From contig JAHDPL010000020.1 in NCBI GenBank assembly GCA_018434355.1, forward strand, positions 182,255 to 246,254: a stretch of 64,000 bases of DNA, given 5' to 3'. Source of the DNA: Sporomusaceae bacterium. GTDB taxonomy: Bacteria > Bacillota > Negativicutes > UBA1444. Below, in pieces: positions 24,754-43,313 of this stretch. Position numbers and translations under genes: made by a program. The first letter of the stretch is position 1. The number at the start of each line of letters is the position of its first letter. The notes under the pieces were generated by a model. The model searched no databases. It was not told the origin of the DNA and saw only the letters and a list, made by a program, of their open reading frames with translations.

Positions 24754-25629
24754 CTAATTCCCTTTTACATAAATGTTCTCAATTTCCCGGATTTTTGTCA
24801 AGCCGATCAGGTCATTGAATTGTTCGAACGTGATCATTTCCGGAATCAGGCTTGCCGTCGTACCGGTTTCCTTCAGCACGGTCATCAAGCGGGTCAGCGC
24901 CTTGGTCACCAGGTACGTCGACGCTGTCGGGAAAATCACCAAATCGTAACCGAGGTCTTGGAGTTCTTTCACCGGCAGGAACGGCGTCCGGCCACCCTCC
25001 ACCATGTTGGCCAAAACCGGAACCTTGAACGAAGTGGTGATCTGTTTCATTTCTTCAACAGATTCCGGCGATTCAATGAACAGGATATCCGCGCCGGCTT
25101 CCTCATAAGCTTTGGCCCGTTCCAGCGCCTCACCGATTCCATGTACGGTCCGCGCGTCAGTCCGGGCAATGATCATTAGGTCGGGGTCTGTACGCACATC
25201 GGCTGCGGCCTTGATTTTGCCGACCATTTCTTCTTTGGAGACGACCTGGCGACCGGTCATGTGACCGCACTTCTTCGGCGCTACCTGGTCTTCCAGCTGT
25301 ATCGCCGCCACACCGGCCTTTTCATATTCGCGCAGCGTCCGCATCACATTGACGGCGTTGCCGAACCCGGTGTCCGCGTCGGCAATTACCGGCACATTCA
25401 CGGCTTCAACGATATTCGACGCCCGGGCCACCATCTCCGTCAGCGTCAGCAGACCAACGTCCGGTTTCCCCAGATGGCTGGCCGCCTGGCCGTAACCGGT
25501 CATATATACCGCCGAAAAGCCAACCTGCTCGATAATTTTCGCTGTCAGGGCGTCGTGCGCGCCTGGCGCGACGACGATCCGGTTTCCTGTCATCATTTGT
25601 CTCAGCATTGTAGTTTTTCTCATAGTCAT
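24754..25629 (-). CDS. dml: Isocitrate-lyase/PEP-mutase-superfamily C-C lyase; candidate (2R,3S)-2,3-dimethylmalate lyase
   Basis: 291 aa with the catalytic loop KKCGH, the lyase type with Cys (not the mutase type). It is the last gene of the nicotinate-fermentation operon. Confidence 0.7.
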   Translation of the reverse strand: MTMRKTTMLRQMMTGNRIVVAPGAHDALTAKIIEQVGFSAVYMTGYGQAASHLGKPDVGLLTLTEMVARASNIVEAVNVPVIADADTGFGNAVNVMRTLREYEKAGVAAIQLEDQVAPKKCGHMTGRQVVSKEEMVGKIKAAADVRTDPDLMIIARTDARTVHGIGEALERAKAYEEAGADILFIESPESVEEMKQITTSFKVPVLANMVEGGRTPFLPVKELQDLGYDLVIFPTASTYLVTKALTRLMTVLKETGTTASLIPEMITFEQFNDLIGLTKIREIENIYVKGN

Positions 25630-27071
25630 TTTTCGCCCCCAGCTAATAATCCAAATTGTTGTTTGGCAAACCGTAGCGCTGCATCGGGATATTGTTGCGA
25701 CAACGCCCCCACGGCAAACATCAGGTAATCTTTGTCCATGATAAACCGTGGCTCTTGCGGCAGCAGAGAAATTCCCGGATTTTTGAACGCCTGTTCCAGA
25801 ATAAACTGCCGATCCGCCGCCGAGCTATGAGTAAATATGCCGCCGACTGCAATCACATGGGTAACTCGACGCAAATCGCGACCAATCGGGGTTCCCGGCA
25901 CAATCCCCATCACAGGGTTGAATTCCTGCGAAATATAACCTGCGTGGCGTTTCAGCGCCACTTCGATCGCGCTGGCTGCCAGCGCCAGGTCGAACGACTT
26001 GTCCCGGTCACTGGTGCTAATATGTTCCGGATTCTTTTCCAGCCAGGCAACGTATTCGGTCAGTTCCGTCGCTTCCTCTTCGCTTTTTCGGCCAAGTTTG
26101 GCCAGCACTCCCGCCGGTCCTACTGTTTCAACAATGCCGGTGGCGCTGATTCGCAGTCCCAGATTGCCTTCCACCGTGCGATAGGAAGGTTGTTTTTCGT
26201 TGGTCACAACCAGTCCTTTTTCCTCGATTGTCAGGTTTTCCAGTTCCGGCAACACCGAATGAATGTCGGTAGTCGCGCCGCCGATATCGACGACCAGGAC
26301 ATCGCCCACTCCATCTTGAACATAAGTGCCTTTGGCAAGCAATTCCGCCCCCATCAGCACAGCGCCCGGCGTCGGCGTCACTTTTCGGTTGGAAACGATG
26401 TCAATCAGCTTGTGCAACCCTTTAGCCCGCGTGATTTGCCGGATGAACTGCTCATGAATCGCTTCACGGGCCGGCTTGACTTTCAGTTCGTGAATCGTCG
26501 GCATCACATTGGGGACCCGGATATGACCGATTCCTGCCTCAGCAAGGATTTCGGCCGCTTCAGCCTGGGCCTCCTTGTTGCCGGCCAGGATCACTACCGC
26601 TTTGCCCCGCGCCTGCACGATAATCCGGGCATTGCTGATGACCGAGTCCCGGTCGCCGCCATCGGTGCCGCCAGCCAGCAAGATAATGTCAGGCTGAATT
26701 TCCATCAACACCTGCAACCGGTACTCCGGCAGATCTTCGGAGCTGATGATTTCCAGCACCCTGGCGCCGGCGCTCATCGCCACTTCTTTGGCAGCTTTGG
26801 CCGTCACGCGCGGCATGTAGCCGAGCGCTACCATCCGCAGGCCGCCGGCGGCGCTGCTGGTGGAAAATATTTGCGGTTCGTCTGCGATTGCCACGCCGGT
26901 TGTGGCCAAATTTTGCTTCGCCGCGGCAATGCCGCGCTCGATATCGTCGACGGTCGTAGATGCTTGCGCCCTGCCGGCCAGGCAAAGTTGGTTCCCTGCC
27001 ATGTGAAAACCGGCTACTTTCGTGTAGGTGCTGCCGACATCGAATACAAGCAGATTTGTCTCCATCGTCAT
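25626..27071 (-). CDS. GlmL/MutL-family protein (B12-mutase-associated ASKHA-fold reactivase/chaperone); candidate MgmL
   Basis: ASKHA N-terminus LLVFDVGSTYTKV and a second phosphate motif VVDIGGATTDI, about 480 aa in length. Lies directly downstream of the B12 mutase and isomerase genes. Confidence 0.65.
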   Translation of the reverse strand: MTMETNLLVFDVGSTYTKVAGFHMAGNQLCLAGRAQASTTVDDIERGIAAAKQNLATTGVAIADEPQIFSTSSAAGGLRMVALGYMPRVTAKAAKEVAMSAGARVLEIISSEDLPEYRLQVLMEIQPDIILLAGGTDGGDRDSVISNARIIVQARGKAVVILAGNKEAQAEAAEILAEAGIGHIRVPNVMPTIHELKVKPAREAIHEQFIRQITRAKGLHKLIDIVSNRKVTPTPGAVLMGAELLAKGTYVQDGVGDVLVVDIGGATTDIHSVLPELENLTIEEKGLVVTNEKQPSYRTVEGNLGLRISATGIVETVGPAGVLAKLGRKSEEEATELTEYVAWLEKNPEHISTSDRDKSFDLALAASAIEVALKRHAGYISQEFNPVMGIVPGTPIGRDLRRVTHVIAVGGIFTHSSAADRQFILEQAFKNPGISLLPQEPRFIMDKDYLMFAVGALSQQYPDAALRFAKQQFGLLAGGEK

Positions 27072-27081
27072 TGCCCTCCGG

Positions 27082-28215
27082 TTAGCTGTTGCGAACGAAC
27101 GCATATCCTTCCATCAATCTGCGGGCAGTCCGTGAAAACGCCACCCTGGTCAGCTGGCCATCGGCAAACTTCGCTTCGACGTCGATTACGCCGGCTGGAT
27201 GGCCGATCCGAATCAAATCGATCGAGTCAATGTGCGGGATCGCCTCATGCACAATCGTGCCGGGAATCTTGGCGGCTGCGCCGGTGCAGGCGGTGCCGGT
27301 CCCCGGATATGTCTTGTGCAGCACCTGCATGAACATCATCCGCGACAGAAAATCAACCTGGTCCTGTTCGATGGTCTTGCCGGAAGTAAAGTCGGTATAG
27401 CTGGCGCGCGGCGCAACAAAAGCAATCATCGGAAACGCCGGATTCTTTTGTGAAGCTTCCGCAGGATCTTTGGCCATGCCAAACAGCACCCCCGCTTTGG
27501 CCCGAATCTCCTCCAGCAGTTTCAGCAACGCAGCGTTGGCATTGACTTCCTGCGGCGTTTCGCGTCCAGTCATGCCGACGTCTTTGGCCCGGATGAACAC
27601 GCAAGGATTGGACACGTCGACCAAGGAAGCCTGAATCGGGCCGGCGCTGGTTTCAATCGTATCAATCGGGTTGCCTGTCGGCAGCAGTTTGCCGCTGACC
27701 GCGCCGACCGTGCCGGAAAAATCCATCATGATCTTGGCGCCGGTTCCCGGTACGCCATCGATGCTGCAATCGCCGCAGACTTTCGCCATTCCGTCTTCAG
27801 TCGGAACGTCGGCAATCAGCAGTTTTCCGGTGTTGACATTGTGAATACGCACCCGGGTCATCGCGCCGGTTGCAGTCACCAGTCCCTCGTCGATCGCATA
27901 GGGTCCGACCGCAGAAGAAATGTTGCCGCAGTTGCCGGAGTAATCAATGTAAGGCTGATTGATGCTTACTTGACCGAAAGTATAGTCGACGTCGGCGTCC
28001 GGATGGGTCGAGCGGGCGATGATTGCCAGTTTGCTTGTCAGCGGGTCGGCGCCGCCGAGTCCGTCGATTTGCCGCACGTCCGGGCTACCGAAAATTTCCA
28101 AAATCATTTTGTCGCGCTCTGCAATATCCTGCGGCAAGTGGTTCGGTTTCAAAAAAACCGCTTTGCTGGTGCCGCCCCGCATCAGAGTGCAAGGAATCCG
28201 TCTTGAATCTCTCAT
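27082..28215 (-). CDS. mii: PrpF/AcnD-accessory-family isomerase; candidate 3-methylitaconate delta-isomerase
   Basis: 377 aa containing [17 protein letters not shown] and the second Cys motif [15 protein letters not shown] of the PrpF/Mii fold. Confidence 0.7.
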
Positions 28216-30062
28216 TGAAGTCCTCTCCTTTCCAGTTCGGCTTCCGCCCAGTTCACGCAGGCTTTGGGATCGCTGCCGGGGCCGAAGAAAGCATCGACGC
28301 CCAAGAAATCGGTCCCTTCCTGCTTCATCTTGGTTTCATAGAACGCATGCTCTTCTTCTTTTTCCGCCACGCGACCGCCAGCCATCAAAATCACGTCGTC
28401 GCGCAGGCCAAGTTCTTTAAGTCGTTGATCCACCCGCGGGAATAACACCATACCCATGCCGAGCAAGTTGCTGATCCCGATCATGTCGGCTTTTGCTTCA
28501 GCGGCGACTTCAGCCACCGTTTCCGGCAAATTCATCCCGCGCAGGTAAATGACTTCAAAGCCGGACTTTTCAAATGCTTCTTTAATGATATTGACTCCCA
28601 TCACATGAGCGTCTGCGCCGACTGTTGCCAAGACCAGCTTGTTTTTCTTGGTCGGTTTCTCGACTTTCGGCACTTCGACAGCCTCTTGGGTAACGGCGAC
28701 TTTGGTTTCATCGACGCCGAGCGGCGTGAATCCCGGCACATAGCGCTTGATTCCGTCCTTGTCGCGATGTGTCAGCACATGCCGCTTCAGGTCCCAACCG
28801 CCGGCCCGCGGGCAGTCGAGCACTCCCGCCTTGCCTGCCGTCACAACCTTATTCACCAAATCGTCCACACCATATTGCCGCCAGAACTTCTCGTTTATTT
28901 CATCCGGGGCCAGACTGCGCTCGAACTGCAACGTGCTTTTCAACACCGCCATCGCTTCGTCGAGGATTTCGTTTTTGCGCACTTCGATATATGGGTCTTG
29001 GATGTCGATCTGTACCGTGTTTTCAAACACATTGTGCGTCGCCCAGATTGCTTTGGCCATCGAGCCGCCGGTCGGGATCCCCACCGATTCGGCCGCTTTC
29101 GGTCGATAGAAATTGGCTTTGCCGAGTTTGGCGCTAATCGCCATCCTGGCAAAATGACCGGCTTCGGCAATCAGGTCAGGCGGCGGATTCTGGAAGGTTT
29201 CCGGCACGACAATCAGGCTCTTGCTCCACATCGTTTCGCGGAATGCTTTCATCACCGCCAGGTCGGCCAGTAAATTGTAGCCGGCCACATTCATCTGCAG
29301 CGCACTCAATTCCTTTGGCAGTCCGGACAGCACGCCCAGTCCTTCAGCCAATAAGCACATCGCCAGACCCATGCCGTCGGTGCCGCCGATATTATTCAAG
29401 TGCTTGTGCGATTCGATCTGGACAAACATTTTGTTTTCGGCGCAGATTTCCAACGCCTTGAATCCATTGACCACTTTGGTCTTGTAATCATGGATGCCGC
29501 GACCACCAAAGTGCACATGGATGACCGGACCGATATCCGTACCATCAAAACCGGCGATCAAAGCGTTAATAATCGACAGGTGCGGCGTGTCGCCGGTTGC
29601 GTTGATCCGCATCGGATGTACTGAACCGCCGCCTAGTTCAACTAATTTGCGCTCGCCCATCGGAGTGATGCCGCCCTTGCCTCGCGACTGCTCAATCAGC
29701 TCCCGGCCGGCCAGCGGGTCGATATGGCGGGTTGCTTCGGAGTGGACAAAATGAAAGATCTTGGTGCCGAGTTTTTCGGCCATCTCATACATTTCGCAAG
29801 ACTCTTTGTAGGTTTCTTCGGCAGTCAACCGACCAAGAATCGGGTTCTGGATCGGTATGCCCGTCTCTACCGCCTGCTGGCCCAGTTCGTAAATCCGGTA
29901 GCCGCTGCGGGTAACGCCGCAAACTTCGCGCGGATACGGCGCCGGCAATCCGTCAATCGAACCGTCTTTGCCCACTTTCGGCATCGGTGCGCTGAACGCT
30001 TCTTCATAGGCCGCTACCCGGTCATAATCCTCAACAATAATCTGCTTTGTTCTTTCTTGCAT
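28212..30062 (-). CDS. mgm: Coenzyme-B12-dependent 2-methyleneglutarate mutase (GlmE-like TIM-barrel domain fused to a C-terminal B12-binding domain)
   Basis: 616 aa. The N-terminal ~480 aa are like the glutamate-mutase E subunit. The C-terminal ~130 aa form a Rossmann-like B12-binding domain with DxHxxG ([10 protein letters not shown]). Confidence 0.75.
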
Positions 30063-30568
30063 TATGATTTCCTCCCGCTGCTAATGTTCAGTTCCTGACG
30101 AACCCGATTAATCAGACCGCCCGCTCGAATCGTCGCCAGAACGTTTTCCGACAACGGCTGTCCGTTTAACACACCGGTCGCAGTATGAATCTCGCCTGTT
30201 TCCAGGTCTACGCTCACGACTTCGCCATTCTGCAGTTTTGCGCCGACATCCGCCAACATCACCGGCAAACCGATATTGATCGAATTGCGCCGGAAAATCC
30301 GCGCGAACGAGTTGGCGATAATCATGCCGACCCCGGCGCTTTTCAGCGCAACCGGCGCTTGCTCGCGACTAGATCCGCAACCGAAGTTCTTGCCGGCCAC
30401 GATGATGTCCCCCGCTTGAACCTGTTTGGCAAAATCGGCAACCTTGCTGCCGGCCATGGCAAATGCAGCCAGTTTGGAAGCATCTTCGGCCATGGCATAT
30501 CCCGGCAGGATCTGATCGGTATCGACATTGTCGTCAAAAATCCATACCCTTCCCTGTAGCTTGTCCAT
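30062..30568 (-). CDS. dmdB: Aconitase-family dehydratase small subunit (LeuD-like), paralog 2; candidate dimethylmalate dehydratase small subunit
   Basis: The true start is [23 protein letters not shown] (the track's N-terminal extension is arginine-rich junk). Contains [12 protein letters not shown]. Confidence 0.8.
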
Positions 30569-30569
30569 T

Positions 30570-31772
30570 TCAGCCCACCTCCCGCTGCAAAGTGCCCGGC
30601 GTCGTAATTTTGCCGACCACAGCCGATTCCGCCGCCGTCGCAGGCGAGGCAAGATAAAGTTTCGCTGCGCGATGACCCATGCGACCAGGGAAGTTGCGGT
30701 TCGTCGTGGTAACTATCGTGTCGCGTTCTGTGCCCAGTCCCTGATGCGCGCCAAAACAGGGGCCGCAACCGGGATTGGCGACTACGGCGCCGGCGTCGCG
30801 CAAAATCTTGGTCCAGCCGCGTTCTTCCATCGCATCCAGCACCTGCTTTGACGCCGGGATGATCAGGCAGTTAACGTCCGGGTGAACTTTGTGACTACGC
30901 AGGACATTGACGACCTTTTCCATGTCGTTCAAACGACCATTGGTGCAACTGCCCACCACGACCTGGGTAACGGCAATGTCGCCAAGTTCGGCCACCGGTC
31001 GGACATTGGCCGGCGAAAATGGACAGGCAGCCATCGGTTCAATTTGAGTCAGATCGAGCGGGATTGAAGCTGCCACTCCTTCTTCCTTGGCTTCGCCGCC
31101 GAAGCAGGCAATCATCGCGCCCATTTCAATTCCCATGTTACAGACCGTCATCCGTTCTTCCACCGGCAACTGGGCAATACCAGGTCCGGTGAACAGCACC
31201 GCCTTGTCGGTCAGGCCATCGACGCCGAACTGCCGCATCAACGACAGCACGATATCCTTACCGCTGACATAAGGCCGCAATTCGCCAGTCATAAAGACTT
31301 CAATCGTCTCCGGAACTTCCAGGTCGATCGTACCGGTGGCCATCGCCGCCGCCAGTTCGGTTGATCCGACCGGAATCGCAATCACGCCATAGCCTCCAGC
31401 CGTACAGGTGTGCGAGTCGGCTCCGACCAAAATCTGTCCCGGTTGCAGCCGATGCCGCTCCGAAATCAGCTGATGACAGACGCCTTCACTTTTACTGTAC
31501 AGCGTGACGCCGTACTTGGCAGCAAAATCCTTCATGATCCAGTGCGAAGTCCGGGCCTGCACCGTCGCCGCCGGGAAAATATGGTCAATCACCAGCACCA
31601 CCTTGGCCGGGTCAAATACCCGATCGACGCCGATTTGTTCAAATTGTTGGATGGCAATCGGCGCCGTGACGTCGTGGCTTAATGCCAAGTCGACTCGGCA
31701 GCGCACATCCTGCCCTACGGTTACGGTTAGCAGTCCGGCTGCCTCAGCCAAAGACCGTTCAACAAAATTCAT
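30570..31772 (-). CDS. dmdA: Aconitase-family dehydratase large subunit (LeuC-like, 400 aa), paralog 2; candidate dimethylmalate dehydratase large subunit
   Basis: Contains GADSHTCTAGGYG, CNMGIEMGA and GCGPCFGAHQG Fe-S ligand motifs. Its stop lies 1 nt before the small-subunit start. Confidence 0.8.
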   Translation of the reverse strand: MNFVERSLAEAAGLLTVTVGQDVRCRVDLALSHDVTAPIAIQQFEQIGVDRVFDPAKVVLVIDHIFPAATVQARTSHWIMKDFAAKYGVTLYSKSEGVCHQLISERHRLQPGQILVGADSHTCTAGGYGVIAIPVGSTELAAAMATGTIDLEVPETIEVFMTGELRPYVSGKDIVLSLMRQFGVDGLTDKAVLFTGPGIAQLPVEERMTVCNMGIEMGAMIACFGGEAKEEGVAASIPLDLTQIEPMAACPFSPANVRPVAELGDIAVTQVVVGSCTNGRLNDMEKVVNVLRSHKVHPDVNCLIIPASKQVLDAMEERGWTKILRDAGAVVANPGCGPCFGAHQGLGTERDTIVTTTNRNFPGRMGHRAAKLYLASPATAAESAVVGKITTPGTLQREVG

Positions 31773-31790
31773 CTTCCCACCCCTGCCCGA

Positions 31791-33221
31791 CTAATCTACG
31801 ACTTCGATCTGCAACCGTTTGGCAACTGCCAGTGCTTCTTCCCGGCTGGGAATCGCGCTCTTCAGTGCCAACCTGCCGCCGCCGCGATTGTGCGCCGCCA
31901 CCTGGACCACACCGCCGGCGGCTTCAATCGTCACCCGTTGCATCTGCGGCTCATCCACCTGCAGGATTTCGACTTCAATTCCGGCCGCTTCGGCCATCTG
32001 CATCACATCGCGGTAAAGTTTGCTGTTATCCGTGCCGGCGCCGTACAAAGCCGCCATCAGGATTCCCGGCACGTTGATGCCCCGACGGGCGAACAGTTCC
32101 GGGTATAGCTCAATTTTCACCTTTTTGATTTCGCCCTGCGTCAGGAAGTGGGCGATACGGCCGGTATTGGTAGGCGAACCGACCGCCTGGCTGCTACCGC
32201 CGACTACCGCTTCGCCAAACGGTTTGATAATCGAATTGGCACGACGAGCCAGGTCCTTTGCCTCGCCGATCGCCTGCGACACGATTGTCTCGATCCGGGC
32301 CTTTTCTTCATGTTTGATTGCATCGCCGATATAGGATTCGACCGCCTGGTTCGTTTTAAAGAAAGGCTCCATGTATTGTATGACTGTCGGCACGATCGCT
32401 TTGGCAGAAACCGGATGCACCGCCGCCGCCATCGCCACCATTACATCGACCGGCACCGTCACCGGGATTGAAGTATGCATTGCCAGCTGAGCCGCTAGTT
32501 TGCCGATCATCACGCCGCCACCGATATGTGTGGCGCAAAGTCCAGCCACCATCACCCGCGGTGTACAGGGGTTGCCGATTGTCGGCGACAGGGCCAGCAC
32601 AATTGCTTTGCGCATCGCCTCCGGCGTACCGCCGGCCAGTTCGGTAAATGCCGCCGCCGAGGCCGCCGCTCCAGCTCCAAAACCTTCCATGTTGCAGCCG
32701 GTGGTCGTCTTGCCCACCCGGAATATCGTGCCAATCTTCAACATGACCGCCGCCACGCGGGCCACCAGTTCTCGGTCATCGCCAAACTCGTCCTGCATCG
32801 CCCGGACAAATCCGGTATAGGTGCAGGAATCGCCAGTGCCTGCGCATGGCTCCAGACCGACCGAATGGTTGCCGACCTGCGCGCTCAGCGTATAAGCCAA
32901 TACCTTGTTTAGAAAGGAATCTTCAACAATCCTGGCAGATTGATCGCCTACCAATTCTTTGCCGGCAGTTCCCATCAGAAAACTGGAGCCGCTGGTATGG
33001 CCGATTTCCACCGCACACAGGTTATGGGCAAAAGACGCCAGAACAGCGGACATGACCTCTTCGCGAGTCATCTGGTTCACTGCCATCGCTTCCGCCACGA
33101 CAATATCGCTGACTTTCAAGTCCGCCGCCTGCGCCAATCCGATACAGTCGCCGATTGTCAGCTGACCAGGCTTCAGGCCCTGTTTTTCCATGAGTTCCAG
33201 GACGTCTTTCAAATTCTCCAC
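31791..33221 (-). CDS. hmd: Fe-S L-serine-dehydratase-family protein (fused beta+alpha); candidate 2-(hydroxymethyl)glutarate dehydratase
   Basis: 476 aa. The C-terminal half has Cys-containing Gly-rich loops (TTGCNMEGFGAGAAA, AGLCATHIGGG) like the serine-dehydratase alpha domain. Sits between hgd and dmdA in the nicotinate-fermentation operon. Confidence 0.6.
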   Translation of the reverse strand: MENLKDVLELMEKQGLKPGQLTIGDCIGLAQAADLKVSDIVVAEAMAVNQMTREEVMSAVLASFAHNLCAVEIGHTSGSSFLMGTAGKELVGDQSARIVEDSFLNKVLAYTLSAQVGNHSVGLEPCAGTGDSCTYTGFVRAMQDEFGDDRELVARVAAVMLKIGTIFRVGKTTTGCNMEGFGAGAAASAAAFTELAGGTPEAMRKAIVLALSPTIGNPCTPRVMVAGLCATHIGGGVMIGKLAAQLAMHTSIPVTVPVDVMVAMAAAVHPVSAKAIVPTVIQYMEPFFKTNQAVESYIGDAIKHEEKARIETIVSQAIGEAKDLARRANSIIKPFGEAVVGGSSQAVGSPTNTGRIAHFLTQGEIKKVKIELYPELFARRGINVPGILMAALYGAGTDNSKLYRDVMQMAEAAGIEVEILQVDEPQMQRVTIEAAGGVVQVAAHNRGGGRLALKSAIPSREEALAVAKRLQIEVVD

Positions 33222-33222
33222 C

Positions 33223-34122
33223 TCATTTATTCTCTTCGGCCCGCACTTCCACGCCGGCCATTTCTTCCCACAGTTTGATCACGGCCGAAATATCTTCTCT
33301 ACCATACCCTTTGGCCCGGGCCATTTCAAAAATCTGCTGGGCCAAGGTCGCCATCGGTAATGGAATTGACAGGCTCTTCGCCGTCTCTGTCGCCAGTTCG
33401 AGGTCTTTATACTGTAAGTCAATCGCAAAACCAGCCGCGAACTGATTCTTCAGAATAAAATTGGCCGTTTTGGCTTCCAGCGCATAACTGTTGCCGGAAC
33501 TGCCCTTGATGATTTCCAGCATCATTTGCGGGTCGAGTCCCGATTTTACTCCCAGCACCAGTGCTTCCGCCACTGCCGCCATATTCGCGCCAAGCAGCAG
33601 ATTGTTGACCGCCTTCATTGCGTCGCCGGCGCCGACTCCGCCGACATGGTGGATTTTTTTGCCCATACATTGCAGTATCGGTTCAACCCGTTTAACATTT
33701 TCCAGTTCGCCGCCAACCATGATCGTCAAGGTTCCTGCCGCTGCGCCAACCACGCCGCCGCTGACCGGCGCATCAACATAGCCGATGCCTTTGGCCGCAG
33801 CCAGTTTAGCCATTTGCCGGGTACTGCCGGCTGCAACGCTGCTCATATCGATGATAACCTGTCCGGCGTTCCCGCCCGCCAGCAGTCCTGTCTCGCCGGT
33901 CAGCGTCGCTTCTACGATTTTGGAGTTGGGCAGCATGGTGATGATGGCTTCCGCCGCTTGCGCCAATTCTTTCGGCGACTGACATGCTTTCGCCCCTTGC
34001 GCCACCATATCGGCTACCGCTGCGGCGACAACGTCAAACACATATAAATCATGTCCGGCTTTTAACAGGTTGAGCGCCATCGGTTTTCCCATCGCGCCGA
34101 TTCCGATAAATCCTATTCGCAC
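33223..34122 (-). CDS. hgd: 3-hydroxyisobutyrate-dehydrogenase-family NAD(P) oxidoreductase; candidate 2-(hydroxymethyl)glutarate dehydrogenase
   Basis: GTG start after a ggggaggga RBS. The Rossmann N-terminus is IGFIGIGAMGKPMALNL, with beta-hydroxyacid dehydrogenase catalytic Lys context. Confidence 0.75.
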   Translation of the reverse strand: MRIGFIGIGAMGKPMALNLLKAGHDLYVFDVVAAAVADMVAQGAKACQSPKELAQAAEAIITMLPNSKIVEATLTGETGLLAGGNAGQVIIDMSSVAAGSTRQMAKLAAAKGIGYVDAPVSGGVVGAAAGTLTIMVGGELENVKRVEPILQCMGKKIHHVGGVGAGDAMKAVNNLLLGANMAAVAEALVLGVKSGLDPQMMLEIIKGSSGNSYALEAKTANFILKNQFAAGFAIDLQYKDLELATETAKSLSIPLPMATLAQQIFEMARAKGYGREDISAVIKLWEEMAGVEVRAEENK

Positions 34123-34261
34123 CCGATTCCCTCCCCAAAATTGATGTGAACAAGGAGGCGCCTATCGCGGTCGCCTCCGAGCGGACTGCCATAGTCCGAC
34201 TTGTTCTCCATCATTATTCTTATTACAAACTGTTGATGAATCGTCTACTCAGAAAACTGGG

Positions 34262-34883: not shown

Positions 34884-35723
34884 TTAACTAAACAACGTTT
34901 CCGGATACGACCGGTTCGCCCCTTGCAGATGCAGTGTTGCGCCCTTGATGATCCGCTTGTCCACGTTGTCGCGCAATCTGGTCATCACCTGCTGCATGCT
35001 TTGCTGCACTTCCTGCGGCGTCAGTCTGCCGACTGACTCGGTCACCATCAGCTCGGGGATGTCCGTTTCCGGATCAATCAAACGGGCTAAACCACGAACA
35101 ACCGCCGAACTATCGATATAACTGGCGTTTGCCAGTGAAGTGGCGAACGCGTCGGCAATAGCGCATGATTTTGCCAACACCGTCACCGATTCCATGACGC
35201 CGCAGGTAAAACTGCGACCGCCCAAGCCGCTGGTGGCGATTCCGCCGATTCCGTCACCGGACGAAAGCTGAACCAGTTTGCTGAATCCTTCACCGCCAAT
35301 TTCCGGCATTACCCCGACTTTTGTCGTTTCTTCCGCCAGCAGGCGGATGGCGACATCGCCGCCATTATTCACCAGCACTTTGGTTGCCCCTTGTTGTTGC
35401 AACCAATCGGCGACCTTGTCGGCAAACGCGCCGGCCACTGCCGCCATCGGCGTCAATTCCTTGTCTGTGGTGGCTTGCACCGCCTGCCACATCGTAACGG
35501 CGACCCCGGATAGTTCTCCCGGTTCGCATTGGGTCCAGCTCCGTTTCAGAAACTTCAGCTGCGGCCCCAGTTCAGTCAGGCAATCAACCGCTATCTGACT
35601 CGCATCGCGACACAACTCAGTCAGCGGCTCACCATCCCGTGATGCGGCAATCACCATCGATATCGGTCCGTAGTCCAAAAACAGCTTGCCTGGACCCACT
35701 TCGGTCAACCACTGCGAATCCAC
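34884..35723 (-). CDS. ApbE-superfamily (UPF0280-like) protein; candidate flavin transferase/maturase
   Basis: The track ORF overlaps hnr by 123 nt and was trimmed to the GTG 8 nt after the hnr stop, preceded by a GGGAGA RBS. An alternative ATG lies at 35657. Contains GIATSGLGG and AIADAFATSLAN, which resemble the ApbE ATSG and ADAxATA signatures. Confidence 0.5.
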   Translation of the reverse strand: MDSQWLTEVGPGKLFLDYGPISMVIAASRDGEPLTELCRDASQIAVDCLTELGPQLKFLKRSWTQCEPGELSGVAVTMWQAVQATTDKELTPMAAVAGAFADKVADWLQQQGATKVLVNNGGDVAIRLLAEETTKVGVMPEIGGEGFSKLVQLSSGDGIGGIATSGLGGRSFTCGVMESVTVLAKSCAIADAFATSLANASYIDSSAVVRGLARLIDPETDIPELMVTESVGRLTPQEVQQSMQQVMTRLRDNVDKRIIKGATLHLQGANRSYPETLFS

Positions 35724-35728
35724 CGGGA

Positions 35729-37222: not shown

Positions 37223-37249
37223 AACGGTTCACCTCATTCTTCCGCTCGC

Positions 37250-38407
37250 TTACATTTTGGGGTTGCGCACGGCCGGCGGCGTATTGCGGCTGACCTTCAC
37301 CTTGATTTCTCCGTCGATAATGACCATCGCGACGCCAGGAACATCGCCGGCTTCGATCGCAGTCAACGCATCAGTGCCAATCGAACCCATCGGCGCATCC
37401 ATAATAACAAAATCCGCCTCTTTGCCGACTTCAATCATCGCGGTATTTAGTCCATAAGCTTTTGCTGTATTGCCGGTAGCCATCGCAATGCATTCGGCGG
37501 CGGCAATGCCGGAAACGCTGGAAATTTGGCAGATGTTGCGCAAGATGCCCAGCGGAATAATGCCGGTACCAGAAGGTGAGTCATTGCCAAAAACCAGACG
37601 ACCCAACTGATTCTTCACTTTCAATTGCCGCGCCACATAATCAGCCACTTTAGGATTGCCGCACTGGACAATCTCCAGCATGAAGTCGGTCTCATTAATC
37701 AGTCGGTCCACTTCGGACGGAGCAATCGCCGTAGGTCCGCCATTGATATGCGAAACGACCGTCGGTTTGGTTTTCATTACATCGTCGGCGGTAACGGTAG
37801 AGCTGCCGGGAATCGAGGTCCCGCCGCAGTGCATCTGGACCTTGAAGCCATGCTTTTTGGCCCATTCGACCATCGGCGCAGCATCAGCCGGTTTCTTCAC
37901 GCCGCCCAGACCCACTTCGCCAACCAGCCAAACGCCATTGGCCGCCATTTCAGCAAAATCGGCTTCGGTCAGCCCCGGTTCCAAAATTACTGCTCCAGCA
38001 TGCATCTTGACACCGGACGGGCGCGCATTATAGTACGATTTACTGGCTACAACCGCCAACGCCTTGACGCCTGCGGGATCTTTCGGACGACCGGGAAAAT
38101 GGGCTTCCCCTGCGGAAATCATCGTCGTGACGCCGCCATGTAGAGAACTGTCAATATAATCAAGCGTCTTTTGCCGGGGTGTAAAATCGCCAATCACCGG
38201 ATGCACATGCGAATCAATCAAGCCGGGCGTAACTGTGGCGCCATTGGCGTCAATCACTTTCAGCTCGGGATTTTGCGCAACCAGTTCCGCACCGCCGATA
38301 GCGGCGATTTTTTTGTCAACAACAACGATTGTGTTGCCTGCCAGCACCGGACACTCTATTTTTCCACTTACAATTGTCCCAATATTGGTGATAACCATCG
38401 AGCTCAT
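37250..38407 (-). CDS. ena: Amidohydrolase-superfamily enamidase (1,4,5,6-tetrahydro-6-oxonicotinate hydrolase)
   Basis: The true start is MSSMVITNIGTIVSG after an aagggggaag RBS. Contains TPGLIDSHVHP, MHCGG and VSHINGG metal-ligand motifs of the bimetal amidohydrolase fold. Confidence 0.75.
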   Translation of the reverse strand: MSSMVITNIGTIVSGKIECPVLAGNTIVVVDKKIAAIGGAELVAQNPELKVIDANGATVTPGLIDSHVHPVIGDFTPRQKTLDYIDSSLHGGVTTMISAGEAHFPGRPKDPAGVKALAVVASKSYYNARPSGVKMHAGAVILEPGLTEADFAEMAANGVWLVGEVGLGGVKKPADAAPMVEWAKKHGFKVQMHCGGTSIPGSSTVTADDVMKTKPTVVSHINGGPTAIAPSEVDRLINETDFMLEIVQCGNPKVADYVARQLKVKNQLGRLVFGNDSPSGTGIIPLGILRNICQISSVSGIAAAECIAMATGNTAKAYGLNTAMIEVGKEADFVIMDAPMGSIGTDALTAIEAGDVPGVAMVIIDGEIKVKVSRNTPPAVRNPKM

Positions 38408-38475
38408 CATTTCTTCCCCCTTCGAAGTGTGGGCGGGTCTGTCCCCACAGACCCGCACCATCGCATTGAATTTAA

Positions 38476-39510
38476 TTAGTTGTCTAGTTTCATGTCACCG
38501 TATTTGATCATGCCTTTTTTCCGCATGAATTCAGAAATCAACAGAGTCAGGATTGCCGGTAAAACAAAGTGCAACATGACAACCTTAAATATCACGTCTC
38601 CACCCATACCCATGGCTTCAAAAGTGCCGAACTGACCTACAAGACCGCTGGTCCCCATACCGGCGCCTGCCGGCACGTTTTTCATCGGCCAGATCGTTGT
38701 GGCAATCGGGCCCAGTATCGCCCCAGCCAAAGTGGGAGGCACCAGAATCATCGGACTACGCACTATATTGGGCACCTGCAGCATCGAAGTTCCCAGTCCT
38801 TGAGAAATCAGTCCGCCCCAGCCATTCTCACGATAACTGGCCACAGCAAAACCAACCATTTGCGCCGCACAACCGACGGTCGCAGCACCGGCCGCCAGCC
38901 CGCCCAATTTCAGCATCATCGCCAACGCGGCGCTGGAGATCGGCGCGGTGAGGATCAGGCCCATCATAACCGAGACAAGGATTCCCATCGGAATCGGATG
39001 CAGTTCGGTCGCTTTCATGATCAACGCACCCAAGGCAACCATCAAGGTGTTAATGGTCGGACCGATGAATACGCCGGTTGCGACGCCGGTGATAATCGTG
39101 ACCATTGGGGTAACGATGATGTCAACTTTGGTTTCTTTGGATACCAGCTTGCCGAACTCAGCGCCGATAACAGCGGCTACGAAACAACCAGCAGGTCCGC
39201 CGAGCTTGGCGCCGGCCATACCGGTGATGGTCGAGGCAAACAGGACCAGCGGAGGCGCTTTTAGGCCAAACGCAACCGACACGCCGATAGCGGGTCCCAT
39301 CATCGCCATGGCTTGCAGACCGTAATCCGTCAGAAGTTTGATGCCAGTCTTATCGCCAATGACTTTGAGAATAAGGCCGACGATAAGGGACGAAAAGAGT
39401 CCGAGCGCCATTGCGCCAAGTGCTTCGATACCATACCGATGCAAAGAGAACACGATGTTCTTCCGCTGAAGGAAACTTTGCTTTTCAGCTGCCGCAGGTG
39501 TAGTTGACAT
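38476..39510 (-). CDS. Polytopic membrane protein, PTS-EIIC-like/PfoR-type permease; candidate nicotinate (or intermediate) transporter
   Basis: 344 aa with about 10 TM segments rich in Gly/Ala. Lies inside the nicotinate-fermentation operon between ena and ndhM. Confidence 0.45.
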   Translation of the reverse strand: MSTTPAAAEKQSFLQRKNIVFSLHRYGIEALGAMALGLFSSLIVGLILKVIGDKTGIKLLTDYGLQAMAMMGPAIGVSVAFGLKAPPLVLFASTITGMAGAKLGGPAGCFVAAVIGAEFGKLVSKETKVDIIVTPMVTIITGVATGVFIGPTINTLMVALGALIMKATELHPIPMGILVSVMMGLILTAPISSAALAMMLKLGGLAAGAATVGCAAQMVGFAVASYRENGWGGLISQGLGTSMLQVPNIVRSPMILVPPTLAGAILGPIATTIWPMKNVPAGAGMGTSGLVGQFGTFEAMGMGGDVIFKVVMLHFVLPAILTLLISEFMRKKGMIKYGDMKLDN

Positions 39511-39549
39511 GGATTCATCCTCCTCTTTTTGTGTGGCTGTTGGCTCTGG

Positions 39550-40605
39550 TTATCCCTGGAGTTGTAGTTTAGCCAATACTTTGTCCGCGGTAATGGGGAG
39601 GTCGGTAATTCTGACACCGACTGCATTGTAAACGGCATTGGCAATAGCAGCAGCCGTTGGAATCAGAGCCGGTTCACCGACGCCCTTTGCTCCGAAAGGC
39701 CCGGTCACGGCAGGGTCTTCCACAATGATCGACTGAATCGGCGGCACGTCGAGCGATGTGGGCAGAACATACGTGGTAAAGTTTGCTGTCGCCACGTTCC
39801 CCTGCTTGACCTGGACTTCTTCCATCAATGCATAACCTAATCCGATTGCACACCCCCCTTCAATTTGGCCTTCCACGTTTTGCGGGTGAATGGCCTTGCC
39901 CACATCGTGGGCCGCAACGATTTGTATCACATCAACAACTCCGGTCTCCGTATCGACTTCCACTTCCACCACCTGTGTAGCATAAGCATAGGTCGCATAC
40001 GGCCTGCCTTGACCTGTTTCCATGTCAAGACCGGTAGTGTCGGGGTTGAACCAGCCATGCCCGAGCGATAGTTTTCCTTTGGCCCGGCATTTGGCGATGC
40101 AATCTACAATACTGATCGATTTGGCGTCGGTCCCCGGCGTCAGACCCAGCGCGATTTGGCACTCGGCCTGGCAATCGACCAGATCTTTGGATTTGTCGGA
40201 CTGGGTTCGCACGGTCAACATCCGATCCGCTGCAACAATATCGGCTACACCAACGCCGAGCGCCTCGGCTGCAGCTTCCACTATGACGGATTTGGCCTGT
40301 TGCGCTGCCATCCGCACCGCATTGCCGGAGATATAGGTCTGGCGGCTGGCCGACGATGCCCCCGCATCCGGCGTTACACCCGTATCGGCAGAAACGACCC
40401 GGACATCGCCGATTTTGACGCCTAGCTCTTCGGCGGCAATCTGGGCCAGCGCGGTAGTCGAACCTTGTCCGATATCGGCGCACCCTGTCAGCACCAGCAC
40501 AGTGCCGTCATCCAGTAAATCCACATAAGCGCCTGCCGGATTTGGCAAGCCGGTGTTTCCGATTCCATACCACATGGAGGCCATGCCGATTCCTCGTTTT
40601 TTCAT
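39550..40605 (-). CDS. ndhM: Molybdenum-hydroxylase Mo-binding subunit, C-terminal half (split large subunit); candidate nicotinate dehydrogenase medium subunit
   Basis: 351 aa of the XDH/CODH family C-terminal region (GQGSTTALAQIAAEELG ... GEPALIPTAAAIANAV). Confidence 0.8.
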   Translation of the reverse strand: MKKRGIGMASMWYGIGNTGLPNPAGAYVDLLDDGTVLVLTGCADIGQGSTTALAQIAAEELGVKIGDVRVVSADTGVTPDAGASSASRQTYISGNAVRMAAQQAKSVIVEAAAEALGVGVADIVAADRMLTVRTQSDKSKDLVDCQAECQIALGLTPGTDAKSISIVDCIAKCRAKGKLSLGHGWFNPDTTGLDMETGQGRPYATYAYATQVVEVEVDTETGVVDVIQIVAAHDVGKAIHPQNVEGQIEGGCAIGLGYALMEEVQVKQGNVATANFTTYVLPTSLDVPPIQSIIVEDPAVTGPFGAKGVGEPALIPTAAAIANAVYNAVGVRITDLPITADKVLAKLQLQG

Positions 40606-40615
40606 GTTCTCCCTC

Positions 40616-41887
40616 CTACCAGTTCAGTTCCATAGTCTTCTTCGCACCTGCGGTTGCGGCTTCCAGGGTTTCTACGATGCCCACACTGTCTTTCAGCTCA
40701 GTTCCCGTTCCAGTGAACGAGCCTGGGCGCAGGGCATTGATCAAACGAATTTTCAGCGGCGAAACGCCGAGTTTTTCAGCCAGGATATCCATCTGGCTTT
40801 CATGGGCGAATGCGACCTGCGGCACGCCAAAGCCGCGCATCGCGCCAGCCTGGGGATTGTTGGTATAGACGGTATAGGCGTCGACTTTCACGTTGGGGAC
40901 TTCATACGGCCCCATCACGTGAACTGCCGAGCGGGTCAAAGTACCTGGACCGTAGGAGGCGTAAGCGCCGGTGTCGCCGATGATGCTTGCTTCGAACGCC
41001 AGCAGTTTTCCATTGGCATCGCTGCCGCTCTTCAGTTTCATAATGAAGGGATGACGCTTTACACTGTTGGCAATCGACTCGTGCCGACTGTAAATCATTT
41101 TGACCGGACGCCGCGTCGCCACCGCCAACAAGCCTAGATGCACCTGAACCGAAACATCCAATTTGCCGCCGAAGCCGCCGCCGGTCGTCGCTTGGATCAC
41201 CCGGACCCGGTTAAGGCCGATGTTGAGATTGCGGGCGATTTCTTTCGCGTCATAATGGGGGTTTTGCGTACAGACCCAAACTGTGACAATATCGCCATCC
41301 AGCTTTGCCACGCCCGCTTCCGGCTCGATATAGGCATGTTCGGCCATTTGTGTCTGGTAGTCTTGTTCGACGATGACCGCACACTCGGCAAAGGCTTTTT
41401 CCACGTCGCCGCGGCGAATTTTTCGGACGGCCAGCACATTGCCTTTTTCATAGATTTTCGGCGCATCATCCTTCATCGCTGCGACCGGATCAAACACCGC
41501 CGGCAATTCATCCACCTTGACTTCGATCAAACGCAGAGCTTGTTCAGCAATTTCTTCGGTTTCCGCAGCGACCAGTGCAATCGGGTCACCGATTTTACGG
41601 ATTTTCTGACCATTTTTCACCAAGACCGGCTCATCTTTAATGATGATGCCGCTGCTGTTCGAACCGGGGATATCGTCGCCCGTCAATACGGAGACAACTC
41701 CAGGCAGCGCTTTTGCCTTGCCCGTGTCGACCGACAGCAGAACGCCGTGGGCAACCTTGCTGCGCAGTGTCTTGCCGTAAATCATGCCGGGGAACTGAAT
41801 GTCGGCAGCGTATTTTGCCACGCCGAGAACTTTTTCGACGGCATCCAGTTTTTGGACGGAATGGCCGATGACTTTGTAATCACTCAC
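40616..41887 (-). CDS. ndhL: Molybdenum-hydroxylase Mo-binding subunit, N-terminal half; candidate nicotinate dehydrogenase large subunit
   Basis: The start was re-placed at a GTG that overlaps the ndhS stop (GTGAGTGA), after a GGAGG RBS. The protein begins VSDYKVIGHSVQKLDAVEKVLG. Confidence 0.8.
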   Translation of the reverse strand: MSDYKVIGHSVQKLDAVEKVLGVAKYAADIQFPGMIYGKTLRSKVAHGVLLSVDTGKAKALPGVVSVLTGDDIPGSNSSGIIIKDEPVLVKNGQKIRKIGDPIALVAAETEEIAEQALRLIEVKVDELPAVFDPVAAMKDDAPKIYEKGNVLAVRKIRRGDVEKAFAECAVIVEQDYQTQMAEHAYIEPEAGVAKLDGDIVTVWVCTQNPHYDAKEIARNLNIGLNRVRVIQATTGGGFGGKLDVSVQVHLGLLAVATRRPVKMIYSRHESIANSVKRHPFIMKLKSGSDANGKLLAFEASIIGDTGAYASYGPGTLTRSAVHVMGPYEVPNVKVDAYTVYTNNPQAGAMRGFGVPQVAFAHESQMDILAEKLGVSPLKIRLINALRPGSFTGTGTELKDSVGIVETLEAATAGAKKTMELNW

Positions 41888-42353
41888 GGTCTTCACCTCC
41901 ACCTTGGCAGGCCACTTTTTCAATGGCGTTGACGATTTTGGTATAACCGGTGCAACGGCAGAGATTGCCGGAAATATGCCGGGAAATTTCTTCGCGTTTT
42001 GGATGCGGATTGACATCCAGCAACGATTTGGCGCTGAGCAACATTCCTGGCGTACAAAAGCCGCACTGTACCGCTCCCTCGGCGATAAACGCCTCTTGCA
42101 GCGGATGCAGTTTGTCATAGTCGCCAAGTCCTTCAACGGTTACGATATCATGCCCGTCGGCTTTTACCGCCAACATCAGGCAGGAATTCACATTTTTCCC
42201 GTCGACCAAAACGGTGCAGGCGCCACAGTCTCCTTCGCCGCAACCGACTTTGGTTCCTGTCAGTCCCAGCCGTTCCCGCAGCAAATCGACAAATAGCAAC
42301 TCCGGCTCGACTTCCAGTTCAATCGGTTTACCATTCAAAACAAATTTAATCAT
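41880..42353 (-). CDS. ndhS: [2Fe-2S] small subunit of the molybdenum hydroxylase
   Basis: The true start is MIKFVLNGKPIELEV. Contains CGEGDCGACTV and CGFCTPG ... CRCTGY motifs. Confidence 0.85.
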   Translation of the reverse strand: MIKFVLNGKPIELEVEPELLFVDLLRERLGLTGTKVGCGEGDCGACTVLVDGKNVNSCLMLAVKADGHDIVTVEGLGDYDKLHPLQEAFIAEGAVQCGFCTPGMLLSAKSLLDVNPHPKREEISRHISGNLCRCTGYTKIVNAIEKVACQGGGEDRE

Positions 42354-42357
42354 TCGT

Positions 42358-43230
42358 TTACTCACAAACGCACACCTCCATAGCCTGCTTCGTCGCCGCT
42401 TCCAAACACCGCTGCACAGTAACTCGCGCCAATTTTCCCCGGTGCGTTGCAGTACAACGGACGTCATCAATCGGTCGGACGCTTTGTTCGGCTTGCAACC
42501 CGGCTTCGGCAAACACTGCCGGTTCCGGTTTGCGACCGACCAACCACTTTTCTGTCTCGTACAGACGAACCGGCGTCGGACCGACCGATCCCAAAGCAAT
42601 GCGCGCTGCAGTAATTACGCCGCCCTGCACGCGTACCCAGGCCGCTCCATTGACAATCGAGCAGGCCAGCGCCTTGCGTTTGCCAAATTTGGCGAATGCC
42701 GCGCCTTCCCCTGCAGCAACCGGCGAAACATGGATTCCGGCGATATATTGGCCCGATTTTAGGCAAGTCCTGCCAGGTCCGACAAAAACTTTATCCAAAG
42801 GCAGATTTTCTGAGCCATTCGCGCTATTTAGCTGTACTTTTGCGTCAAGCGCCAACAATGCCGGTACAGTATCGGCCGCCGGCGAAGCATTGCCGATATT
42901 GCCGCCTACGGTTCCTGCATTGCGGATTTGCGGCGATCCCACTTCCGAAGCCGCCAGGCAGAGCGCGGCTGTTTTTTTGTTCATCACAGGCGAATCCATC
43001 AATTCCCTGTGCGTGACCAGCGGCCCGATCCAAAGAGAGCCGGCTGTTTCGCGAATCCCCTTGAGACTTTCAATCCCGCTGACGTCGACCAAATTGCGCG
43101 GAGAAATCAACTTCTCCTTCATCTTGACCATGACGTCGGTCCCGCCCGCCAAAAGGCAGTAGTCTTCCATCCCGTTCAAAAGAGCCGCCAATTCAGTTTC
43201 GCTTTTGGGACTGTGGTAATTGAACTGCAT
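42358..43230 (-). CDS. ndhF: FAD-binding subunit (CoxM/XdhB-like) of the molybdenum hydroxylase
   Basis: The true start is MQFNYHSPKS. Contains the FAD motif LLAGGTDVMV and AGTVGGNIGNASP. Confidence 0.85.
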   Translation of the reverse strand: MQFNYHSPKSETELAALLNGMEDYCLLAGGTDVMVKMKEKLISPRNLVDVSGIESLKGIRETAGSLWIGPLVTHRELMDSPVMNKKTAALCLAASEVGSPQIRNAGTVGGNIGNASPAADTVPALLALDAKVQLNSANGSENLPLDKVFVGPGRTCLKSGQYIAGIHVSPVAAGEGAAFAKFGKRKALACSIVNGAAWVRVQGGVITAARIALGSVGPTPVRLYETEKWLVGRKPEPAVFAEAGLQAEQSVRPIDDVRCTATHRGKLARVTVQRCLEAATKQAMEVCVCE

Positions 43231-43297
43231 TTTGTCACCCCACAACTACTTTTTTTGTTTTTACTGTTTTGTCCATTTTGACTCGTTCTGTTAATAT

Positions 43298-43313
43298 TGC
43301 AAATAGCGTGCCA
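43298..43313 (-). promoter_or_regulatory. Sigma-54 promoter (perfect -24/-12 consensus) for the nicotinate-fermentation operon
   Basis: Minus strand reads TGGCAC-gctat-TTGCA, about 70 nt upstream of the ndhF start. Confidence 0.8.

Follow-up and report, generated by a model that had tools for sequence, protein, structure and literature searches.

We analyzed a 64,000-nucleotide stretch of contig JAHDPL010000020.1 (assembly GCA_018434355.1) from a Sporomusaceae bacterium, hereafter the window, and hold it very probable that a single sigma-54-dependent transcription unit of about 19.6 kb, predicted to run from a promoter at 43313 to a terminator at 23744, encodes a complete anaerobic nicotinate pathway of the Eubacterium barkeri type. 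Seventeen co-directional genes lie tightly packed on the minus strand in the 23.7–45.2-kb part of the window, all of them intact open reading frames (ORFs), and include all nine pathway enzymes (NdhFSLM, Hnr, Ena, Hgd, Hmd, Mgm, Mii, DmdAB, and Dml) together with a GlmL-like protein, MgmL. As a reference we used the E. barkeri locus on contig FNOU01000012.1 of GCA_900107125.1, reached via the 2vun sequence and Q0QLE9. With BLASTP against the proteins of this locus, each of the 17 genes found a one-to-one match among its likewise 17 co-directional genes, the identities being 35–68% and the E-values 1e-43 to 0, and the correspondence is therefore far beyond chance; relative to the E. barkeri counterparts, 17 of the 17 ORFs are full length. 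Five of the proteins (NdhL, NdhM, Ena, Hgd, and Mii) have a solved E. barkeri enzyme as their top match in the PDB. An earlier, sequence-only reading had called the locus a complete E. barkeri-type nicotinate fermentation cluster and had proposed a BLASTP comparison with the E. barkeri nic proteins; the matches to every gene, as well as family searches that reproduce the inventory, agree with that call.

Predicted from orthology and synteny with E. barkeri, the pathway would begin with nicotinate uptake by an EIIC_2-family membrane protein and hydroxylation of nicotinate to 6-hydroxynicotinate by NdhFSLM. The Fe–S flavoprotein Hnr would form 1,4,5,6-tetrahydro-6-oxonicotinate, and Ena would open the ring and deaminate the product, giving 2-formylglutarate and NH3. 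Hgd would then reduce 2-formylglutarate to 2-(hydroxymethyl)glutarate and Hmd dehydrate this to 2-methyleneglutarate, which the B12 enzyme Mgm, assumed to be kept active by MgmL, would convert to 3-methylitaconate. Isomerization to dimethylmaleate by Mii, hydration to (2R,3S)-dimethylmalate by DmdAB, and cleavage by Dml would finally yield propionate and pyruvate. The chemistry of these reactions in E. barkeri was reportedly established by Alhapel and colleagues (2006, in PNAS). The features of the locus are listed in Table 1.

Table 1. Features of the nicotinate locus in transcription order, followed by a distal gene pair, with positions in the window
Feature	Position	Strand	Evidence
Sigma-54 enhancer-binding activator, 526 amino acids (aa)	43634..45214	-	Pfam Sigma54_activat (PF00158), 8.2e-70; AAA_lid_14; HTH_8
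Candidate upstream activator sites, 14-mer GCAAAAWTGAAATG	43500-43513(-), 43566-43579(-), 43590-43603(+)		187-290 bp upstream of the -24 element
Sigma-54 promoter TGGCAC-N5-TTGCA, TGGCACgctatTTGCA	43298..43313	-	-24/-12 element; 67 nt upstream of ndhF ATG
ndhF, FAD subunit	42358..43230	-	PF00941/PF03450; 35% identity to E. barkeri NdhF, 1.3e-43
ndhS, [2Fe-2S] subunit	41880..42365	-	Fer2/Fer2_2; 54% identity to E. barkeri NdhS
ndhL, large (N-terminal) molybdopterin subunit	40616..41887	-	Top PDB match 3hrd_A, 1.5e-131; 50% identity to E. barkeri
ndhM, medium (C-terminal) molybdopterin subunit	39550..40605	-	Top PDB match 3hrd_B, 2.9e-92; 47% identity to E. barkeri
PTS_EIIC_2-family membrane protein	38476..39510	-	PF13303, 2.6e-94; 47% identity to E. 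barkeri protein in equal position
ena, enamidase	37250..38410	-	PDB 2vun, 1.2e-172; 68% identity to E. barkeri Ena; HxH at residue 68
hnr, 6-hydroxynicotinate reductase, 497 aa	35729..37222	-	59% identity over full length (499 aa) to E. barkeri Hnr
ApbE-like / UPF0280 protein	34884..35657	-	PF27030 AbpE_bact; PF02424 ApbE, 31 bits, above cut-off; NCBIfam PRK04334
DUF1185 / 'AA_synth' protein	34262..34840	-	PF06684, 1.4e-73; PDB 2qtp/3byq 'uncharacterized protein'
hgd, 2-(hydroxymethyl)glutarate dehydrogenase (HIBADH-type)	33223..34122	-	PDB 3cky, 1.5e-104; 60% identity to E. barkeri
hmd, Fe-S serine-dehydratase-like 2-(hydroxymethyl)glutarate dehydratase	31791..33221 (called start 33212)	-	Weak SDH_alpha match; 52% identity to E. 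barkeri Hmd
dmdA, LeuC/HacA-type large subunit	30570..31772	-	NCBIfam NF001614, 447 bits; 37% identity to E. barkeri DmdA
dmdB, LeuD/DmdB-family small subunit	30062..30568	-	TIGR02087 'LeuD/DmdB family', 178 bits, above cut-off; 47% identity to E. barkeri
mgm, single-chain adenosylcobalamin-dependent 2-methyleneglutarate mutase, 616 aa	28212..30062	-	67% identity over 603 aa to E. barkeri Mgm
mii, 3-methylitaconate isomerase (PrpF fold)	27082..28215	-	PDB 3g7k, 4.3e-157; 64% identity to E. barkeri
mgmL, GlmL/MutL-family putative mutase reactivase or chaperone	25626..27065	-	PF13941, 2e-137; TIGR01319 above cut-off
dml, 2,3-dimethylmalate lyase (ICL/PEP-mutase family)	24754..25629 (called start 25608)	-	68% identity to E. 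barkeri Dml
Soluble MCP-signalling-domain protein	23778..24659	-	PF00015, 1.2e-29; N-terminal ~130 aa unclassified
Intrinsic terminator GCCGGCTAAAATTTTAGCCGGC, then T-run	23744..23765	-	Strong; 12 nt 3' of MCP-like gene
Second LeuCD-like pair (distal)	Large ~11836-13100, small ~11330-11833	-	38.6% and 46% identity to E. barkeri DmdA/DmdB

Several observations weigh against this reading: NdhF is only 35% identical to the E. barkeri subunit; the identity of DmdA to E. barkeri is low, at 37%; E. barkeri DmdAB is equally near a second, distal LeuCD pair at 11.3–13.2 kb of the window; and, with regard to a single unit, a weak hairpin with a T-run stands at 24682-24697, at the junction of dml and the MCP-like gene. 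The first bears on the entry substrate. The hydroxylase subunits are the least conserved core proteins, NdhM and NdhL reaching 47% and 50% identity vs. 59–68% for Hnr, Hgd, Mii, Mgm, Ena, and Dml, and modules of Ena, Hgd, Hmd, and DUF1185 occur without ndh, hnr, or mgm in gut Clostridia, where parts of the pathway appear to be reused for other substrates. The same enzyme chain could thus serve another pyridine or N-heterocyclic carboxylate, entering through an Ndh of shifted specificity and proceeding via analogous intermediates. On the other hand, four adjacent ORFs give the separate FAD and 2Fe–2S subunits and the L/M split that distinguish nicotinate dehydrogenase, and both molybdenum subunits match that enzyme (3hrd) best. 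The next PDB matches are unsplit enzymes, whose E-values are worse by over 60 orders of magnitude in the case of NdhL and by some 40 in that of NdhM. Tyr13 of NdhM, modeled as contacting the ring nitrogen of nicotinate (PMC5746545), is conserved together with the split. Hnr and Ena, acting on the Ndh product, are 59–68% identical to their E. barkeri counterparts, and the inventory of 17 genes is whole. We therefore regard a different entry substrate as highly improbable and nicotinate as the predicted one. An identity of the molybdenum enzyme as xanthine dehydrogenase, or as a purine hydroxylase, which the sequence-only reading had named as an outcome that would undo its call, was rejected on the L/M split and the top match to 3hrd.

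For Ena, the PDB match following 2vun drops to 6e-08. Hnr starts with a 2x[4Fe-4S] ferredoxin module made of two CxxCxxCxxxC motifs (Fer4), and its segment MRVGCGSAT (residues 251–259, GCGSAT being 254–259) is invariant across 41 homologues. In Hmd, Cys126, Cys176, Cys219, and Cys229 are invariant across 14 homologues. The slot between ndhM and ena holds an EIIC_2 gene in both the window and E. barkeri; its product is a candidate transporter of nicotinate or 6-hydroxynicotinate and probably serves the proposed uptake step.

Along its entire length, the mutase shares 67% identity with the E. barkeri 2-methyleneglutarate mutase, which rules out glutamate mutase, the other identity weighed for it. 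The C-terminal B12-binding domain carries the DxHxxG motif as DAHVMG at residues 484–489. In an AlphaFold model based on 27 homologues (predicted local distance difference test score 84.6), the chain folds into a TIM barrel and a B12 domain of the Rossmann type. The best superposition of the barrel is with GlmE (1cb7_B; TM score 0.64, root-mean-square deviation 4.5 Å) and that of the C-terminal domain with GlmS (1cb7_A; TM score 0.82), as anticipated by the sequence-only description of a GlmE-like barrel followed by a DxHxxG domain. Whole-chain fold matches of the model are to methylmalonyl-CoA mutase, and we found no solved structure related by sequence to the catalytic domain. MgmL shares 51% identity with the E. 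barkeri gene product in equal position. Dml matches the PEP_mutase/ICL family and carries, at residue 119, the KKCGH motif that had been read from the sequence.

DmdAB is the weakest enzyme assignment of the cluster. E. barkeri DmdA scores 303 bits (38.6% identity) against the distal large subunit and 281 bits (37.5%) against the cluster copy, and E. barkeri DmdB 166 bits against the distal pair vs. 134 bits against the cluster pair. The assignment therefore rests on cluster position, as the E. barkeri proteins are no closer to the cluster pair than to the distal one. The distal pair, moreover, lies 3' of a sigma-54-like promoter of its own, TGGCATtgtttTTGCA (13196-13211), with a divergent PrpR_N-PAS sigma-54 activator at 13323-15203 (+), and one could imagine that it performs the dimethylmalate step or that the two pairs have swapped or overlapping roles. 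We consider this unlikely. The cluster pair is wedged between hmd and mgm with gaps of 1–18 nt or overlaps, its small subunit scores above the cut-off of the 'LeuD/DmdB family' model, and a pair of the same lineage (51–84% identity) occupies the slot between hmd and mgm in most related nic clusters. The surroundings of the distal pair are of another kind, with a different activator and, downstream, a LysR gene, a Na+/dicarboxylate-type transporter, a two-subunit fumarase, and Sdh/Frd genes. With the cluster pair retained as the predicted DmdAB, the comparison has a further consequence. Among the sampled loci, DmdA of the E. barkeri type (63% identity) is found only in Neomoorella carbonis, all others having the window type; given this distribution, the 37% and 47% identities of the two subunits, and the equal closeness of the distal pair, the sequences indicate that dimethylmalate dehydratase has either been recruited twice from the LeuCD family or diverged deeply within it.

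The limits of the unit follow from its packing and its flanks. Gaps between genes, computed from the gene calls, range from -8 to 139 nt, the terminator downstream is strong, and the hairpin after dml is merely weak, which together give the length of about 19.6 kb. The largest internal gap (34123-34261, 139 nt) separates the DUF1185 gene from hgd and contains two GC-rich hairpins; it has no sigma-54 promoter and no T-tract terminator. In several related operons, by contrast, a second sigma-54 promoter at the junction of DUF1185 and hgd splits the operon, whereas the window is not split there. The segment 24754-43313, originally singled out, starts at the dml stop codon and ends at 43313, the first base of the sigma-54 element, and the locus probably reaches past it on both sides, to the activator (43634-45214) upstream and to the MCP-like gene and the terminator at 23744 downstream. 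The MCP-like gene is probably the last of the unit, and it may be only partly cotranscribed because of the weak hairpin and T-run that precede it. Its homologues stand directly 3' of dml in Sporomusa, Desulfosporosinus, and Desulfitobacterium (31–38% identity; 83% in a close relative, the metagenome-assembled genome L015), and the protein may be a nicotinate-linked chemotaxis or signaling component. Neither an Rfam family, such as a cobalamin riboswitch, nor a tRNA was detected in the 64-kb window.

Directly downstream of the operon, positions 20920-23587 hold genes for an ErcA-type Fe-alcohol-dehydrogenase-like regulatory protein (NCBIfam NF041833, above cut-off) and a PAS-GGDEF-HD-GYP protein; an ErcA-like gene is also present in L015, which is congeneric with the host.

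The identical sequence is carried by a 154-kb contig assembled from SRR13787006. It belongs to an uncultured Negativicutes species, known from assemblies alone, to which the closest species representatives are two metagenome-assembled genomes, 'Negativicutes bacterium JTS-AC173' and an 'uncultured Veillonellaceae' bin, each with 87–88% nucleotide identity and thus of the same genus and a different species; Sporomusa proteins are about 70–80% identical. That the cluster might be a silent or decaying acquisition, unused by the organism, appears to us a next to negligible prospect. All 17 ORFs are intact and of full length, the GC content of the cluster (0.53–0.58) is uniform with the remainder of the window, and the GC skew is negative throughout. 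Most of the proteins are 92–99% identical to those of the congeneric genomes, the ApbE-like and MCP-like proteins being at 82–83%, and such protein identity at 87–88% nucleotide identity is consistent with purifying selection. We thus keep to a functional nicotinate operon as the predicted state.

The exact TGGCACgctatTTGCA element, the only exact sigma-54 promoter match in the window, confirms the promoter proposed from the sequence. The gene upstream of it encodes an activator with an AAA+ domain at residues 213–381, GAFTGA at 288, and a Fis-type helix-turn-helix at 481–518. About 200 N-terminal residues are unclassified and appear, on our own reading of the sequence, to contain an internal duplication; residues 1–200 gave no Pfam match even at E ≤ 10, and BLASTP found no similarity between the N-terminal domains of the activator and the MCP-like protein that would point to a shared sensor fold. 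Homologues of the activator (51–58% identity) adjoin nic genes in more than a dozen related loci, and it is likely, from its sequence and position, to be the regulator of the nic operon. The three copies of GCAAAAWTGAAATG are the only exact ones in the window and all fall in the intergenic region between the activator gene and ndhF, where the copies at 43566-43579(-) and 43590-43603(+) make up a long inverted repeat. The 14-mer recurs, with no more than one mismatch, between the activator gene and the nic operon in seven related loci; in stretches of only some 250 bp, such a recurrence is by our estimate very unlikely to arise by chance. In 19 related loci, the first nic gene (ndhF, ndhS, hgd, or hmd) has a sigma-54 promoter in front of it, whereas E. 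barkeri and a close relative have a LysR gene and no sigma-54 promoter. Since activator, promoter, and 14-mer recur across related loci, the predicted sigma-54 arrangement is a real conserved variant, widespread among the relatives and not peculiar to this window. A survey of sigma-54 regulons in Clostridiales makes no mention of nicotinate (PMC6615313).

In the mechanism that we propose, the activator would bind the three candidate GCAAAAWTGAAATG sites and switch on the TGGCAC-N5-TTGCA promoter; the signal, perceived through the unclassified N-terminal domain, would presumably be nicotinate or an intermediate. Control by a dedicated sigma-54 activator with a duplicated N-terminal sensor of a new type may apply in most lineages.

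The window contains two further sigma-54 activators with plausible promoters, three activators in total, and sigma-54 therefore seems to be a general catabolic device in this organism; by the same count, rpoN, which the 64-kb window lacks, is very likely present in the genome. One of the two is the activator beside the distal LeuCD pair. The other, a GAF-PAS activator at 62118-63950 (-), belongs to a third sigma-54 unit at 54118-63950 with the promoter TGGCATgcatcTTGCA at 61992-62007. The genes of this unit encode an SDH_alpha-like protein, an amino-acid ABC transporter, two PALP enzymes, an amidohydrolase (55359-56951), and an M20 peptidase, and the unit looks like an uncharacterized catabolic operon for a nitrogen compound.

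Two genes without a step in the pathway as described accompany its enzymes with great constancy. The ApbE-like gene stands directly 3' of hnr in 35 of the 35 loci that could be scored, E. barkeri included, and does so in both gene orders. The protein is 39% identical to the E. barkeri copy and has weak PDB matches to FAD:protein FMN transferase. Hnr of E. barkeri is reported, in the Alhapel abstract, to carry a covalently bound flavin. Together with the constant adjacency, the ApbE matches, and the invariant MRVGCGSAT of Hnr, this makes it a reasonable inference that the ApbE-like protein is a candidate dedicated cytoplasmic flavin transferase for the covalent flavin of Hnr; the attachment site could possibly be Thr259 of GCGSAT. 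Our searches found no literature linking UPF0280 with ApbE. The DUF1185 protein, from a family with two crystal structures, is 63% identical to the E. barkeri copy, whose gene adjoins ena. Across loci its neighbors are mostly hgd, ApbE, and ena, and in gut Clostridia it stands alongside homologues of ena, hgd, and hmd in loci without ndh, hnr, and mgm. On these associations, DUF1185 might represent a tenth functional component that is linked with the enamidase, Hgd, and Hmd steps. Only tentatively, and with the odds somewhat against all three holding jointly, do we propose the ApbE-like flavin transferase, the DUF1185 component, and a dedicated sigma-54 activator that has a duplicated N-terminal sensor of a new type and recognizes GCAAAAWTGAAATG as unrecognized conserved parts of the nic cluster.

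To place the cluster among anaerobes, we scanned one genome per GTDB species with an Hmd profile, found a relative in 205 species, and examined the best 80 loci. At least 21 of these 80 hold all 13 core genes within about 21 kb, and many more lack only genes beyond the flank or contig end. The sequence-only reading had spoken of a rare pathway, which these counts do not support. The complete set occurs in Sporomusa-related metagenome-assembled genomes, Desulfosporosinus, Desulfitobacterium, Dehalobacterium, and Thermacetogenium, among others, and the locus of Sporomusa malonica ends before ndhF, the one gene of the set that is thereby cut off; some Desulfobulbaceae and delta-proteobacterial metagenome-assembled genomes have partial sets that include mgm. 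A search with Mgm gave more than 600 distinct relatives after clustering at 90%, and among the top 120 of these none falls below 69% identity and all are essentially full length. Their hosts include Sporomusa, Anaeroselena, Peptococcaceae, Desulfitobacterium, Desulfosporosinus, Dehalobacterium, Desulfovibrio aminophilus, Bilophila, and Desulforhopalus, and close homologues are already labeled '2-methyleneglutarate mutase', 'mgm', 'enamidase', or 'ena' in the source databases. The literature on the pathway enzymes is sparse and mostly peripheral, and we found none reporting the cluster in Sporomusa or other Negativicutes.

The gene order of the window is the commonest among the best 80 loci. 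Clusters of Sporomusa, Desulfosporosinus, Desulfitobacterium, Dehalobacterium, Thermacetogenium, and related metagenome-assembled genomes share with it both the order and the DmdAB lineage, at protein identities of about 38 to 84%, and many of the related clusters also have the MCP-like gene after dml, a sigma-54 activator or promoter, and the 14-mer. The EIIC_2 gene, present in the window, occurs in only some of them. Judged by sequence and gene content, the window cluster is thus a further instance of a known system, with a gene order typical of its relatives and a sigma-54 regulation common to many. Of the earlier suggestion of a new host and a regulatory variant, it stands that this is a further host and that its sigma-54 control differs from E. 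barkeri, while the variant itself proved widespread in relatives.

A different combination of genes was seen in eight loci of gut Clostridia (Anaerotruncus, Dorea, Lachnospiraceae, and Mediterraneibacter), which contain hgd- and hmd-like genes, two DUF1185 genes, and an enamidase-like gene. The neighbors are an RraA-like aldolase, a LarA-like protein, a short-chain dehydrogenase/reductase, a Zn-alcohol dehydrogenase, and a sugar-type ABC transporter, and ndh, hnr, mgm, mii, and dml are absent from these loci. From its gene content, a module of the nicotinate pathway appears to be reused there for another substrate.

On the other side of the nic locus, immediately upstream of the activator gene, positions 45296-46665 contain a pyridoxal/phosphomethylpyrimidine-kinase-family gene and an ECF-transporter S component; a divergent GntR-aminotransferase (MocR-type) regulator follows at 46763-48193, beyond these two. 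The genes at 45296-48193 are a separate vitamin-related locus adjoining the vitamin B3 catabolic operon.

With the window, the pathway known from work on E. barkeri gains one more host, an uncultured member of the Negativicutes, and the interest stems less from the cluster itself than from the comparison: the breadth of distribution, the sigma-54 module, the accessory genes, and the two DmdAB lineages. The complete pathway is common among anaerobic Firmicutes, and the searchable literature names essentially one model organism; as the pathway is that common in genomes, anaerobic degradation of vitamin B3 may be underappreciated in soils, sediments, and digesters. Three conserved accessory genes and the sigma-54 module represent testable gaps in a pathway regarded as fully solved.

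Among characterized enzymes, glutamate mutase (GlmE/GlmS of Clostridium cochlearium and C. tetanomorphum) is close to Mgm in fold, Mgm being its single-chain equivalent. As with glutamate mutase, a GlmL-family gene is found near the mutase gene, in the window with only mii between mgm and mgmL. In sequence the two differ: the identity of Mgm to GlmE is only about 16%, and the match to Pfam Met_asp_mut_E is below threshold. The genomic context differs as well, being that of nicotinate catabolism and not of glutamate catabolism.

The comparison with E. barkeri shows shared blocks in a different arrangement. In E. barkeri, a divergent LysR gene (-) is followed by hnr-ApbE-hgd-ndhFSLM-EIIC_2-ena-DUF1185-mgm-mii-mgmL-dml-hmd-dmdA-dmdB, whereas the window has ndhFSLM-EIIC-ena, then hnr-apbE-DUF1185-hgd-hmd-dmdAB, and then mgm-mii-mgmL-dml-mcp. 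The blocks ndhFSLM-EIIC-ena, hnr-apbE, mgm-mii-mgmL-dml, and dmdA-dmdB are common to both, and the order differences lie in the placement of hnr-apbE, hgd, and hmd-dmdAB. Several details of the sequence-only reading change in this light. Transcription passes through ena before hnr, the reverse of the order it gave; the EIIC_2, ApbE-like, and DUF1185 genes that it took as extra are all in the E. barkeri cluster as well; and, of the deviations in order that it noted, the placement of hmd-dmdAB does differ, whereas mii before the glmL-like gene is the E. barkeri order too. Beyond the gene order, the two clusters differ in the lineage of DmdAB within the LeuCD family and in the MCP-like gene after dml, present in the window and absent from E. 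barkeri. They differ also in the regulator, a divergent LysR-type gene in E. barkeri and, in the window, a sigma-54 activator with a candidate 14-mer activator site and a -24/-12 promoter. In gene order and in regulator, it is E. barkeri that is atypical.

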